From positions 110,751 through 174,750 of the IMG/VR virus record IMGVR_UViG_3300022848_000777: a stretch of DNA of 64,000 nucleotides; one strand, written 5' to 3'. The position numbers were made by a program, and so were the translations under genes. This document shows positions 2,572 through 10,534 of this stretch, piece by piece (position 1 is the stretch's first letter; each line of letters begins with the position of its first letter). The notes under the pieces are model-generated. The model did not search any database, was not told the DNA's origin, and worked only from the letters and a program-made list of their open reading frames with translations. This DNA is from a virus.

Positions 2572-2752
2572 TAACGTGTAACCAAAGAAAAAAAGACGCG
2601 AACCAAATCGGGCATTATCGACCCCCGTTGTGAGGCTACTTTTTCTCCCTAGGTAAAACCCTTCTGTAAAGCTTGTGTATCACACAAGCAGTATTTAATT
2701 AACAAGCAGAAGCCTTAAAAATAGCCTAAACTAGCTTTTGTTTTTATATTTT

Positions 2753-2933
2753 GTTAGGCACAGTTTATTATGGACTACGAAGAAAGAGCAGAACACGAAA
2801 TTGAACTGATAGAACAAGACGAAACATTAAGTGAAAAGAAAAAGTCTCAAGCAATAGAAGATGTTATACAAGAACTCCGAGAAGAACTCGAAGACCATAA
2901 AAACGGTAGGTAATAATTTTTATTGTGCCTAAC
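2753..2933 (+). mobile_element. cassette A
   Basis: GTTAGGCACA (2753) ... TGTGCCTAAC (2924), 10/10 inverted match, one ORF inside. Confidence 0.75.
2770..2913 (+). CDS. 47-aa charged protein (cassette A cargo)
   Basis: MDYEERAEHEIELIEQD...HKNGR fills the cassette. Confidence 0.7.
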   Translation: MDYEERAEHEIELIEQDETLSEKKKSQAIEDVIQELREELEDHKNGR

Positions 2934-2947
2934 ATAAAATAACAGAT

Positions 2948-3232
2948 ATGAAAAATAGTAATTTAGCATTATACGGAATACAGTCAAATATGGTAGGAGC
3001 AGAAACCTACGCACAAGCTGGCGACTTTGAGTTGTCTACGAAAATACATATCGTTGATGTCTTATTAGCCAACGGAAGTCATTTACATATAGAATGTAAT
3101 ACTGAGGCACAAGCTAGAAGTATCTTGTCGACTTTATACTACTACTCTGTTAACGGTAATGATAACAACGTTGTAGAATTTGACTTTGACTTTACATTAA
3201 ACTACTTGCCGATTGAACTTGCACTCAAATAA
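2948..3232 (+). CDS. hypothetical protein
   Basis: 94 aa ORF. Confidence 0.7.
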   Translation: MKNSNLALYGIQSNMVGAETYAQAGDFELSTKIHIVDVLLANGSHLHIECNTEAQARSILSTLYYYSVNGNDNNVVEFDFDFTLNYLPIELALK

Positions 3233-3613
3233 ACAAATAAACACAATAAATTTTTAAGATATGGAAGAATTGCTATTAAAGAATCAATTAGTTATAATGG
3301 AAGCTATGGTTAAGAATAGATTCAATCAAGACAAAGATGGATTGATAAAACAGATTAAAATAATAAAAGAATTCTTAATTAATATTGAACAAATTTGAAT
3401 TATGGGTAAAATGACAAAAATGACAAAAATTGATGCGGCAATAAGAGATACCACATTATATTTTAGGAGAGCAGAAGAGAGTATAATGTTGCTAATGAGA
3501 GAGAAGAAAGTTTTACAAGAAAGGCTTAGTGCTCTTGAAGAGATAAAAGATAGCGACCAATATGAATAATTTTTTTGTAACTTTAACGGATTGAATAATA
3601 ACAAAACTTAATT

Positions 3614-4021
3614 ATGAAATTACACGAAATTATTGAAGTACACGACAAACCTTATTTTAGAAAAATGAGAGTAGAGAGTGGATTTATGTACAATTTTTGG
3701 GATGTAGAAAAGGATGACTACCAACAAGAATGGACTTTTGTGCCATACTCAAGCGAACTGGTTAAAAATTTCGAACACCGCATAGATACAACGGTAGGAC
3801 TTTGGGCAACCGATGGGCCTGATTTAATCACAACTAAAAATACGAGAGAAGAATCAATAAAATGGTGGGATAGTTTAGGTTCAAACCCATTACTAGGGTT
3901 AATTGAAAAAGGTGAATTAACTACTAAGTATTTTGGCCCTGATAGAATCCCTGAATTATTAACTGGAAGAGAAATTGAAAAAATGTACGTATCTGAAAAT
4001 GAAGATGACGTATATGTGTAG
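3614..4021 (+). CDS. hypothetical protein
   Basis: 135 aa ORF with A-rich leader. Confidence 0.7.
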   Translation: MKLHEIIEVHDKPYFRKMRVESGFMYNFWDVEKDDYQQEWTFVPYSSELVKNFEHRIDTTVGLWATDGPDLITTKNTREESIKWWDSLGSNPLLGLIEKGELTTKYFGPDRIPELLTGREIEKMYVSENEDDVYV

Positions 4022-4049
4022 TTTTTACCCGACTAAATAAAACCGAATT

Positions 4050-4358
4050 ATGGAAGAATTATTAAAAAAAATAGGGCAGTTGCAGTATGAAATCAGTATA
4101 TTAGATATTGATGAAGAGACATTAACAGGTGTTGATATTAGAACAGAAGAATTAAAAGAGATGATAATCCAAGGGCAAGCATTACCTATAGATAGTGTTA
4201 ACGTTTCGTTTGAATACGAAATGTTTATAAATGATAAAGGAACACCATTTGAAATGAACACTTGGATACCAATATCCAACGATAGAATTAAGGATGTTAG
4301 CAGGATAGATGAATACATTGAAAACGGTTTATTAAGAAAAATAGTTAATAAACGCTAA
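4050..4358 (+). CDS. chimeric hypothetical protein reading through a GTT core site
   Basis: QALPIDS-V(GTT 4197)-NVSF; stop codon within AAACGCTAAC. Confidence 0.75.
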   Translation: MEELLKKIGQLQYEISILDIDEETLTGVDIRTEELKEMIIQGQALPIDSVNVSFEYEMFINDKGTPFEMNTWIPISNDRIKDVSRIDEYIENGLLRKIVNKR

Positions 4359-4359
4359 C
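4197..4359 (+). mobile_element. cassette B
   Basis: GTTAACGTTT ... AAACGCTAAC, 9/10 inverted match. Confidence 0.6.
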
Positions 4360-4544
4360 GATTGGGCTATGAATTTTAAAAAATACGGTTATGGAAACTA
4401 AATATTATATAGCGATTGGACTTTTATTAATATCGATGGTGCTAACTTTTTTTGTACCGCTTTGGTTTGAATTAAGAGAGCACAAAAAGTGGATGAAAAG
4501 GAACGATTTTTAATTTTTACCCGACTAAATAAATAACTAAACAA

Positions 4545-8658: not shown

Positions 8659-8716
8659 CTAATGACTAAACTATGTTTTGGTTGTTTTTACAACTTAAAT
8701 ATAGATTTTGTTAGCA
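8657..8716 (+). repeat. attC-like hairpin site
   Basis: AGCTAAT...CTATGTTTTGGTTGT / ACAACTTAAATATAG...GTTAGCA. Confidence 0.75.
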
Positions 8717-9015
8717 TTAGTACGGATTATTAACTAAAAAAATAAATAGAATGAAAAAATTCAACATTAATGATTATATCTATATCCAGATAACAGAATT
8801 AGGATGGAAACACTTAGAGAAAACAGTAGGTAGTGAATACATAAAACATTGTATTAACGCTGACGGGTATAAAAAAGAGATAGATAACGAAACGTGGCAT
8901 AGACTACAAGCGCATGACGTGTTTAGTTTATTACCTATGGGAACAGGATTTAATTTATTATACAATCCAAACGTAATGTTTGATGGGGATGCGTTAAAGT
9001 AGTATTAATGCTAAC
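8710..9015 (+). mobile_element. cassette H
   Basis: GTTAGCATTAGTAC ... GTATTAATGCTAAC, 13/14 inverted match. Confidence 0.85.
8751..9002 (+). CDS. hypothetical protein (cassette H cargo)
   Basis: 83 aa MKKFNINDYIYIQITELGW. Confidence 0.8.
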   Translation: MKKFNINDYIYIQITELGWKHLEKTVGSEYIKHCINADGYKKEIDNETWHRLQAHDVFSLLPMGTGFNLLYNPNVMFDGDALK

Positions 9016-9070
9016 GTTAAGGGTATGGTGTCGTTTGCTTTTCGCAAATGCACTATAACCAGTGTTGTGC
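9009..9070 (+). repeat. attC-like hairpin site
   Basis: TGCTAAC...TATGGTGTCGTTTGC / GCAAATGCACTATA...GTTGTGC with bulged bases. Confidence 0.8.
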
Positions 9071-9862
9071 ATAGTACGGATTATTAAAAACTAAAATTAA
9101 ATAGAATGGAAATAAACAAAATATATAATGAAAATTGCCTTGATACAATGGCGAAAATGGAAGATAACTTTATTGACTTAATAGTTACATCACCACCTTA
9201 TTTTAATGCTAAAGAATATTCACAATATGATAGCGTTTCAGAATATATGAGACAAATGAAAGATATTTTCTTAGAAACTGAAAGGGTGATTAAAGAGGGT
9301 AGGATGTGTGTTATAAATATTAGCCCTGTACTTGTTGCTAGGGAAAAAAGAAGTAAACAAAGCTATAGAATACCATTACCTTATTATTTTGTGCCTATGA
9401 TGGAGGAAATAGGCTTTGAGTTTTTAGAGGACATTATATGGGAAAAGCCAGAAGGTGCTGCTGCAAATAGAAACGGTGGTTTTTTTAGGAGTAGAAAACC
9501 ATTAGCATACAAGCCTAATATAGTTACAGAATATATATTAGTATTTAAGAAAAAGTCAAATTTATTAATAGATAAGTATTTAAAAAACAATAGCCTTGTT
9601 AGTGATGGTTATGAAAGGAGTAATATTTGGAAAATACAACCACAAACGAAAAGTAAGCGCCCAGCACCTTTCCCTGATGAAATTGCTGACAAATTAATAA
9701 AATACTATTCGTATGAAAATGATTTAGTTTATGACCCGTTTATGGGAAGTGGAACAACTGCAAAGATGGCTAAACTAAATAATAGAGATTTCATAGGTAG
9801 TGAAATGGTTGAGGATTACTGTGTAATTGCAAATGAACGATTAAAATAGTATTATGCACAAC
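9064..9862 (+). mobile_element. cassette I (DNA methyltransferase)
   Basis: GTTGTGCATAGTAC ... GTATTATGCACAAC, 13/14 inverted match. Confidence 0.85.
9106..9849 (+). CDS. beta-class N4-C/N6-A DNA methyltransferase
   Basis: catalytic TSPPY near the N-terminus; SAM-binding DPFMGSGTT near the C-terminus. Confidence 0.93.
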   Translation: MEINKIYNENCLDTMAKMEDNFIDLIVTSPPYFNAKEYSQYDSVSEYMRQMKDIFLETERVIKEGRMCVINISPVLVAREKRSKQSYRIPLPYYFVPMMEEIGFEFLEDIIWEKPEGAAANRNGGFFRSRKPLAYKPNIVTEYILVFKKKSNLLIDKYLKNNSLVSDGYERSNIWKIQPQTKSKRPAPFPDEIADKLIKYYSYENDLVYDPFMGSGTTAKMAKLNNRDFIGSEMVEDYCVIANERLK

Positions 9863-9908
9863 ACAAGGCTAAACTGTCGTTTTCAATACAGTTTAGTTAA
9901 TGTTATCT
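9856..9908 (+). repeat. attC-like hairpin site
   Basis: GCACAAC...GGCTAAACTGT / ACAGTTTAGTT...GTTATCT. Confidence 0.75.
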
Positions 9909-9933
9909 TTTGTTAATAAGTAAACTAAAAATT

Positions 9934-10290
9934 ATGAAAACAATTAATTTATTTGGCAAAGAAATGCCAATTGAGAAAGAATACGAAGCAGCAGTTTGTG
10001 TATGGGAAACGATTGGTTCAAGTATTGATGATTATGAAGATGTTAAAATAAAACTAGGACAGAAAATATATAATATTAAAATATTGGAAACTGGTAGTAT
10101 TATTTTTACAACATCACCAGATAGTAAAATTAATATGGTGACAATGTTTCCTCAAATGTTTGGATTTCCAAGCGATGAGCAACTAATTGAAGTTAAAAAT
10201 TTAGAAGATATTATAAGCAAATCACATGATAAAATAAATGATATTTATAATAGTATTGAACGAACTGGTTATACTGATATACCGTTTTAA
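9934..10290 (+). CDS. hypothetical protein
   Basis: ATG at 9934 after an A-rich leader. Confidence 0.7.
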   Translation: MKTINLFGKEMPIEKEYEAAVCVWETIGSSIDDYEDVKIKLGQKIYNIKILETGSIIFTTSPDSKINMVTMFPQMFGFPSDEQLIEVKNLEDIISKSHDKINDIYNSIERTGYTDIPF

Positions 10291-10301
10291 AACTAAATAT
10301 T

Positions 10302-10502
10302 ATGAATGAAGATATTATAAAATTAAAAAACTTGATTGAAGAGTATGAAGAACTTTGTGAAGAATCTGAACAAATGAGCAAAGATTGGGAAAGTGGTTCT
10401 GAATGTGAATCGGCAATGGCAGACCCTAGCGACAAATATATGAAGGGTATGCAGATTGAAGAAAAGCGCAATGAAATTAAGAGTGTCTTAAATACACTCT
10501 AA
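10302..10502 (+). CDS. acidic hypothetical protein
   Basis: 66 aa; stop codon in CTCTAACG. Confidence 0.7.
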   Translation: MNEDIIKLKNLIEEYEELCEESEQMSKDWESGSECESAMADPSDKYMKGMQIEEKRNEIKSVLNTL

Positions 10503-10534
10503 CGTTGAGTATAACAATTAAAAATAGATAAATT

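Follow-up and report, generated by a model that had tools for sequence, protein, structure and literature searches.

A putative orphan array of integron-like gene cassettes in the genome of a large phage

Integrons are gene-capture platforms of bacteria, and lately also of archaea, that depend on a specialised integrase, IntI. Xer recombinases integrate the whole genome of the CTX phage of Vibrio cholerae at the host dif site via a single-strand hairpin that mimics the duplex site, and the pdif modules of Acinetobacter plasmids are gene modules that occur in various contexts and are bounded by inversely oriented Xer-type sites; the latter are conserved 28-bp duplex sites, with no module-specific arms, hairpin connectors or adjacent dedicated recombinase. 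In T4-type phages, promoter early stem-loops (PeSLs) are direct repeats of promoter plus terminator, between which exchange takes place by homology over zones (Arbiol et al. 2010, PMC2839356; PMC4122927). Here, we analyzed a 64,000-nucleotide stretch of DNA from a marine phage (hereafter the window; bases 110,751–174,750 of the 174,750-bp IMG/VR record IMGVR_UViG_3300022848_000777, completeness estimate 90%), in which a gene for an AAA ATPase (1168–2493) and a gene for a DNA polymerase exonuclease subunit (10535–11476) enclose about 25 small open reading frames (ORFs) on the + strand, only one of which matches a Pfam family (an N6/N4 DNA methyltransferase, 9106–9849). Positions 2753–10503 of the window probably constitute an orphan array of integron-like gene cassettes, which a tyrosine recombinase of the Xer/IntI clade would mobilise in related flavobacterial phages. 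Coordinates below refer to the window, and all features of the array lie on its + strand; loci in other phages are denoted by L and a number.

The locus resembles an integron in that its genes form a one-directional array and are mostly single, small and unannotated. Its sites, like attC, are imperfect hairpins with AAC/GTT at the base, an unpaired spacer, an inner stem and a variable loop, and the start of each cassette complements the far end of the same cassette in all eight paired units of the window and also in relatives, where units are moreover reordered and inserted at a conserved site next to a tyrosine recombinase gene oriented away from the array. However, no IntI integrase adjoins the window array, and the enzyme of the relatives comprises 277 amino acids, scores below the IntI cut-off and has no IntI insert. 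The cores are not RYYYAAC/GTTRRRY, the outer stem is 10–14 bp long rather than 7, wobble pairs lie on the coding strand, and the crossover, where resolved, falls on the AAC side and not at G↓TT (arrows denote points of exchange). The hairpin stands 5΄ of the gene and the genes point towards the recombinase, an arrangement opposite to that of classical cassettes; the start of some ORFs lies inside the site, the carriers are phages, and the window has no attI site, an attI-like motif being present only in the relatives. When read on the strand with the wobble pairs, the arrangement corresponds to that of a classical integron on its recombining strand, with AAC at the 5΄ foot, the unit after the site, an attI-like end and an outward recombinase. 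The non-canonical cores are typical of Bacteroidota phages, in agreement with the proposal, made in an initial annotation based on the letters of the window, of a distinct Bacteroidota or phage att family.

With at least two attC-type sites in a row and no integrase in the record, the array also resembles a cluster of attC sites lacking integrases (CALIN), a likeness that holds only if non-canonical sites count as attC-type. With PeSLs it shares its position in a hyperplastic, ORFan-filled region of a large phage, a stem-loop motif flanking each ORFan, the swapping of units between relatives and the lack of a recombinase encoded in the phage; the window has stem-loops and a TATA-like box, whose roles as terminator and promoter are predictions. 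PeSLs, in contrast, have no unit-specific complementary ends, AAC/GTT core or linked integrase. The CTX phage provides a precedent for the clade of the array-linked enzyme, although it uses host enzymes and contains no cassette arrays. Our literature search, which left subscription journals mostly outside, found no publication on such a platform in phage genomes.

Six imperfect hairpins running from AAC or AAT to GTT had been listed in the initial annotation, together with a TGTCG bulge shared by three of them and stop codons inside TAAC or TAAT. All of these features were confirmed, the hairpins both by folds and by a covariance model, and the pattern of the array is far beyond chance. When folded as single-stranded DNA, four hairpins yielded z = –3.0 to –4.0, and the long ones at 5903 and 6523 were weaker (z = –2.0 and –1.6, respectively). 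The shared plan consists, on the 5΄ side, of AAC/AAT, an unpaired spacer of 6–8 nucleotides and an inner stem starting with a TATG-like box, followed by a variable loop, and on the 3΄ side of a return stem ending in a TATA-like box, a spacer of 4–5 nucleotides and GTT; the TATA-like box lies 6–9 nucleotides ahead of almost every GTT. We aligned four window sites with five from other phages, leaving window sites B and C untrained. In this nine-site alignment, 94% of the aligned inner-stem cells pair, compared with 77% in shuffled alignments (none of 500 shuffles was as high), compensatory changes occur at five inner-stem pairs, and the G·T wobble of the TATG/TATA box is preserved in eight sites. 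The resulting covariance model recovered the untrained sites B and C (E = 0.011 and 0.016) with no other convincing match in the window. A search of the genome and its relatives with such a model had been proposed initially; on the whole 174,750-bp genome it returned exactly six sites, all in the array, all on the + strand and within 4.6 kb. It gave 22 matches in loci that contain relatives of either the exonuclease gene or cassette genes, including sites in other phages that obey the rule of unit ends described below, and no site in 1.47 Mb of unrelated control phage loci (80 loci that surround relatives of the gene for the upstream AAA ATPase). Rfam contains no family for the hairpin sites. 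Two other search strategies were dropped: an exact 15-mer of the left half-site gave 33 single scattered matches over viral contigs, which is the chance level, and a purely structural finder of AAC...GTT hairpins was too noisy and was replaced by the covariance model.

A motif of the form ACGGATTATTAA was also observed after several GTT arms, 20–30 nucleotides ahead of the start codon (8722–8735, 9076–9089 and 7229–7245 in the window, and also in L154 and L178), and may be a translation or transcription signal of the cassettes.

Each of the eight paired units starts with GTT followed by about seven unit-specific bases (the GTT arm) and ends with the complement of these bases followed by AAC (the AAC arm). 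The eight end-to-end matches given in the initial annotation all hold. When nine GTT arms were compared with 13 AAC arms in a matrix, all eight paired GTT arms matched best with the next AAC arm downstream (7–10 of 11 variable positions for true pairs, as opposed to about 4 for other combinations). Position 11 carries a fixed G·T mispair, in which the GTT arm contributes G and the AAC arm T. Four instances of a strict signature (seven perfect unit-specific bases and G/T at position 11) are present in the genome, each of them inside the array, and matches to a looser signature outside the array all have a mismatch. Inverted pairs of 11-mers with one mismatch number 74 in the genome, a count that is not significant alone; the significance of the end pairs derives from their position, the matrix test and the strict signature, and not from a plain 11-mer count. 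The GTT arms at 4197 and 6346 sit inside ORFs, and the GTT arm at 9902 has no partner.

We further calculated the fold of the predicted circular junction, in which the two ends of a unit are joined round the upstream connector, and obtained energies 2.6–7.8 kcal/mol better than for the site in the array in five of five units, with a continuous outer stem of 14–15 bp. For the unit 5437–5909, for example, the junction folds at –17.3 kcal/mol, compared with –10.5 kcal/mol in the array. The rule of unit ends also holds at independently found sites in six other phage loci. The gene for an 83-amino-acid protein (8751–9002) and its homologue in L154 (62% amino acid identity) have different arms that are complementary in each, and the arms of the unit 6188–6529 differ from those of its homologue in L252 by a compensated change. 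Identical arms were also found around unrelated genes in other phages, and connector C recurs together with both arms at 94% identity in L238, where they surround an unrelated ORF. This recurrence indicates that the connector and both ends of a unit form a single evolving site in spite of the intervening gene, as expected for a site that is split by recombination of a circle.

Dense arrays of the same architecture were found in L154, L178 and L252, and a scan for one arm identified 18 loci where complete units of 163 to 770 bp are delimited by this arm and its partner. Genes for at least four unrelated kinds of DNA methyltransferase, along with other genes, occur in these units; the neighbours of the units differ, and divergence sets in directly at GTT and directly past AAC. 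Similarly, the methyltransferase unit of the window and a unit in L178 show approximately 80–90% DNA identity at both ends, from the GTT arm to AAC, and are flanked by unrelated hairpins. In L180 and L218, a 709-bp block consisting of a connector and the gene after it is 100% identical from AAC↓ to AAC↓, and a neighbouring unit precedes the block in one of the contigs but follows it in the other. When arrays with 93% identity or more were compared, TAAC↓G accounted for 14 of 18 block ends and ↓GTT for none; shared units appear in permuted order (L362 compared with L364), and one unit adjoins the attI-like motif in one array and is internal in another. Since the crossover maps to TAAC↓G, the hairpin belongs to the downstream cassette, and the crossover point initially proposed, G↓TT, is contradicted by these near-identical arrays, although older comparisons do include breaks at ↓GTT. 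No target-site duplications were found at the unit borders compared. Gene replacements between L131 and L132 were set aside as evidence, as hairpin sites are not involved in them.

Some peculiarities of individual units were observed in addition. The alignment of the window methyltransferase (9106–9849) with that of L178 (3512–4258) is mosaic, its middle third being unalignable, as if the target-recognition part had been swapped. Two unrelated families of DNA methyltransferase, at ten loci, both end in YCG and a stop codon, which are encoded by the shared AAC arm; the C-terminus of these enzymes is thus supplied by the recombination site. In L154 (about 260–300 and 4480–4660), one unit consists of two complementary arms round about 20 nucleotides, that is, an empty cassette, and another comprises about 170 nucleotides with no ORF.

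A tyrosine recombinase is encoded in three of 20 array-bearing contigs, in two of them near arrayed units. This array-linked protein has 277 amino acids, and it matches the XerA model best and the integron integrase model second (TIGR02249, 169 bits with a cut-off of 265, the match being split into two stretches that leave out the insert); the nearest solved structures are XerA, IntI4 (2a3v, again a two-stretch match) and XerD. A profile of the integrase retrieved 80 viral loci. Of these loci, 57 extend at least 1.5 kb upstream of the integrase gene, and 55 of them have units with perfect 10-bp end pairs upstream on the same strand; the density of units was 0.61 per kb upstream compared with 0.13 per kb downstream. 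At these integrase loci, the G of position 11 was on the GTT arm and the T on the AAC arm in 120 units, and the reverse occurred in none. A conserved attI-like motif follows the last AAC within the 160 nucleotides before the integrase start in 42 of 77 loci, most often at a spacing of 53–56 nucleotides, with other groups at 77 and at 106–115 nucleotides. The genes of the array point towards the integrase, the integrase gene points away from the array, and the connectors of these arrays span 112–120 nucleotides, with the start codon of the next ORF in the loop. The cultured Polaribacter phage Leef_1 (37.5 kb) contains four such units, with AAC 55 nucleotides before its integrase gene; the paper on Leef_1 mentions the integrase only as a sign of possible lysogeny. 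A search for the integrase in species-representative prokaryote genomes yielded no useful host or prophage match. In L277, which belongs to the contig of L220, the recombinase beside a cassette is split into ORFs of 90 and 118 amino acids (1468–2268, minus strand) and may be a broken copy.

In the mechanism that we propose, a full unit would span the interval from one AAC↓ to the next and contain a connector, GTT with about seven specific bases, one or more genes, and the complement of these bases with AAC. The connector would form an imperfect hairpin with an unpaired spacer beside the core, sometimes containing the start of an ORF. An excised unit would circularise, so that its ends meet around the connector and create one long folded site with an outer stem bearing the fixed G·T mispair, an internal loop and an inner stem, resembling attC on its recombining strand. 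We infer recombination of folded single-stranded DNA from the strand specificity of the G·T pairs and from the improved folding of the circular junction. Exchange at the AAC core would insert, excise and reorder units in related phages, probably through the 277-amino-acid recombinase of the Xer/IntI clade, whose gene comes right after the arrays and behind the attI-like site. Because the window phage has cassettes but neither the enzyme nor an attI-like site, its array would have been built in trans by the enzyme of a co-infecting phage or a host prophage, or else inherited and now be decaying.

If this is the case, it would account for the assembly of the accessory regions in many marine Bacteroidota phages and for the spread of DNA methyltransferases and small ORFans, perhaps serving counter-defence, between unrelated phages. 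It would also imply that integron-type chemistry does not require the IntI insert, and would provide a compact pair of recombinase and site that is directly testable in the Polaribacter phage Leef_1 and its host. The specific point of the window would be that a large phage keeps an enzyme-less array drawing on the same cassette pool. We advance tentatively a still wider scenario, in which flavobacterial phages ranging from integrase-bearing ones of about 30–60 kb, such as Leef_1, to tRNA-rich ones of 175 kb share one pool of self-expressed cassettes. Here, a minimal Xer-like recombinase with no IntI insert would perform integron chemistry on the coding strand, and large phages that have no enzyme would gain and lose cassettes in trans, through co-infection or lysogens; the result would be a virus-borne mirror image of the integron that evolved separately from bacterial integrons.

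Several observations weigh against an integron-like array. The initial annotation had expected an integrase elsewhere in the genome or in the host, but no tyrosine recombinase is encoded in the 175-kb, 90%-complete record as searched with PF00589 and the array-linked integrase profile. Searches of the genome for serine recombinases, HUH transposases, GIY-YIG and HNH proteins and reverse transcriptases likewise gave none, and the window has no attI-like motif above chance. Given that none of the recombinase families searched and no attI-like site were found, activity in the window phage is only presumed. The array-linked integrase has no IntI-specific insert and scores below the curated cut-offs for both the IntI and the Xer families, and it could be a lysogeny integrase that just happens to adjoin a hot spot of accessory genes. 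In older comparisons, breaks occur both at ↓GTT and at AAC↓, and a single crossover point fails to account for breaks on both sides of the hairpin; the breaks at ↓GTT suggest that exchange may also be possible on the other strand or at the other side of the site. Furthermore, the stretches 2934–4196, 6849–8663 and 9902–10503 are without proper sites or matching arms, the first two having lost their sites, and the G·T pairs fit the folding of RNA equally well, the folding strand being the coding strand.

The last point leads to an explanation at the RNA level, in which the ends of a unit pair in the transcript as a panhandle or processing signal that is selected for mRNA stability or cleavage, modularity being secondary. 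Both conserved mispairs are compatible with G·U on the coding strand, and GTT sits where a transcript from the TATA-like box would begin. Nevertheless, many AAC arms are translated (the stop codon lies in TAAC, and the methyltransferases end in YCG) and some GTT arms lie inside ORFs, so that ribosomes would melt the stem, and pairing in RNA accounts for neither the reordering with breaks at the core nor the link to a recombinase; we consider this explanation very improbable. Somewhat better placed, yet still unlikely, are regulatory cassettes of the PeSL type, which combine terminator hairpins with promoters and are shuffled by general recombination at short similarity, with no dedicated recombinase. 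They would fit a genome that has none of the recombinase families searched, as well as the TATA-like box ahead of nearly every GTT, and the similar 5΄ parts of the connectors could act as short homology; T4-type phages shuffle ORFan units in this manner and form mini-circles, with no known recombinase (PMC2839356). However, the crossovers of PeSLs are located in zones of homology and not at one core (PMC2839356), and such shuffling leaves unexplained the unit-specific complementary ends, the mispair at position 11 (120 to 0), the block ends at TAAC↓G (14 of 18) and the linkage to one integrase family and an attI-like end.

A transposon-like nature of the units is scarcely credible on the same body of evidence. 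Non-autonomous elements with terminal inverted repeats of 14 bp (TG...CA ends), mobilised by a transposase encoded elsewhere, would also be bounded by inverted repeats and occur in many contexts; the repeats, however, vary from unit to unit apart from GTTA/TAAC, and no single transposase could therefore read the ends as sequence. The lack of target-site duplications at the borders and the ordered, one-directional arrays beside a tyrosine recombinase also disagree with transposition, and no HUH (Y1) transposase was found in the genome, a search that did not include the DDE transposase families. Invertible segments, generated by recombination between the inverted ends, were set aside because all units in all arrays have one orientation (120 to 0). 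The proposal of an integron-like cassette array is thus supported in part, namely by the relatives, with their recurring and reordered units, breakpoints at the core and link to a recombinase, and it fails with respect to the crossover point and the integrase in the genome itself.

Read as integron-like cassettes, the left part of the array begins with a first cassette body (2753–2933) that consists of a GTT arm (2753–2766), an ORF for 47 amino acids (2770–2913) and an AAC arm (2920–2933); the arms are complementary at 11 of 11 positions from TGTT and are mutual best matches in the matrix, and the arm also flanks an unrelated ORF for 92 amino acids in L035. The following stretch (2934–4196) contains small ORFs (2948–3232, 3261–3398, 3402–3569, 3614–4021 and the start of 4050–4358) and no recognisable sites; it gave no covariance-model match, and no Pfam or PHROG family was found among the ORFs scanned. 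Within the ORF 4050–4358 lies a unit of 163 bp (4197–4359; GTT arm 4197–4210, AAC arm 4346–4359, arms complementary at 9 of 10 positions) with the stop codon in TAAC. A homologue of this ORF in L252 covers only the N-terminal 47 amino acids, which are encoded before 4197, as expected for a protein read across a junction. The interval 4360–5382 would comprise two units with AAC ends at 4819 and 5382, the first with the ORFs 4391–4513 and 4545–4817 and a TAAACG half-site (4815–4822) at its end, and the second with no ORF; the boundaries here are less certain because no partner arms were found. The 563 nucleotides from 4820 to 5382, bordered by AAC on both sides, appear by eye to have a higher G+C content than their surroundings and gave no Rfam match; they could be a non-coding cassette or an RNA gene.

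The central part starts with site A (5369–5450), in which AAC (5380–5382), the connector hairpin (5383–5436) and a GTT arm (5437–5450) follow one another (covariance model 61.6 bits; fold –8.5 kcal/mol, z = –4.0). The cassette body after it (5437–5909) carries the ORFs 5553–5750 and 5750–5908 and ends in an AAC arm (5896–5909) with the stop codon in TAAC; its arms match at 13 of 14 positions and bear the strict signature. Site B (5903–6004; connector hairpin 5910–5990, GTT arm 5991–6004), whose untrained match has E = 0.011 in the window and 8e-4 in the genome, precedes a body (5991–6187) with an ORF for 52 amino acids (6028–6186) and an AAC arm (6174–6187), again with the strict signature (12 of 13 positions). 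A complete unit (6188–6529) then consists of a connector (6188–6345) that contains the start of the ORF (ATG at 6244), a GTT arm inside the ORF (6346–6359) and an AAT arm ending at 6529; its homologue in L252 (64% amino acid identity) has the same layout. Site C (6521–6621; connector hairpin 6530–6607, GTT arm 6608–6621; untrained match, E = 0.016) is followed by a body (6608–6848) with an ORF for 73 amino acids (6626–6847) and an AAC arm (6835–6848), which pairs at 9 of 11 variable positions, the maximum in the matrix. Between 6849 and the AAT end at 8663, eight small ORFs are accompanied by degenerate half-sites only, for example at 7189–7239 (weak covariance-model match, 15.9 bits), and the sole family match among the ORFs scanned is a weak PHROG match for 7602–7940.

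In the right part, site D (8650–8723; connector hairpin 8664–8709, GTT arm 8710–8723; 59.9 bits, z = –3.8) introduces the body 8710–9015 with the ORF for 83 amino acids (8751–9002) and an AAC arm (9002–9015). Its arms match at 13 of 14 positions and also flank C5 methyltransferases in L128 and L130. Site E (9002–9077; connector hairpin 9016–9063, GTT arm 9064–9077; 70.2 bits, fold –10 kcal/mol, z = –3.0) precedes the body 9064–9862, which holds the N6/N4 DNA methyltransferase gene (9106–9849; PF01555, E = 9.5e-44) and an AAC arm (9849–9862), with arms matching at 14 of 15 positions. Site F (9849–9915; connector hairpin 9863–9901, GTT arm 9902–9915; 53.6 bits, z = –3.3) opens the last unit (9902–10503), which contains the ORFs 9934–10290 and 10302–10502 and a terminal TAAC (10500–10503) with the stop codon inside it; the arms of this unit are not complementary (5 of 11 positions). 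At the right edge of the array (10504–10534), the cut-short start of a typical connector, which also follows AAC in L154, L207, L180 and L128, is joined to the conserved gene.

This flanking gene (10535–11476, + strand) lies outside the array and encodes the DNA polymerase exonuclease subunit (phrog_403, E = 2.4e-51; Pfam RNase_H_2 and DNA_pol_B_exo2), and an identification as an RNase H-fold recombinase was accordingly rejected. In related phages, the encoded protein shows 83–88% amino acid identity to that of the window. DNA similarity to 13 related phage loci begins at 10508–10534, a few bases past the last AAC, and there is none upstream, which shows that the array region is fully variable. 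A metagenome scan for strain-level relatives found nothing above 89% amino acid identity in this gene. Its closest relatives (L125/L388 and L116) occur in small phages of 32–41 kb, one of them complete with terminal repeats, and not in large phages; the DNA similarity of these small phages to the window (78–81%) is confined to the exonuclease gene, which may have moved between phage types together with the array.

On the left side, a non-coding leader (2494–2752) ahead of the first cassette contains a strong hairpin of a C-run and a G-run (approximately 2540–2570) and a perfect 8-bp hairpin (2672–2690), and matched no Rfam family above the threshold. Elsewhere, the phage genome encodes 27 tRNAs, one tmRNA and a GOLLD RNA. 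The tRNA genes form a 9-kb block in the window (20187–29060) that includes the tmRNA gene (26491–26885), and the GOLLD RNA (28913–29396, 184.7 bits) encloses a tRNA-Leu gene (28985–29060).

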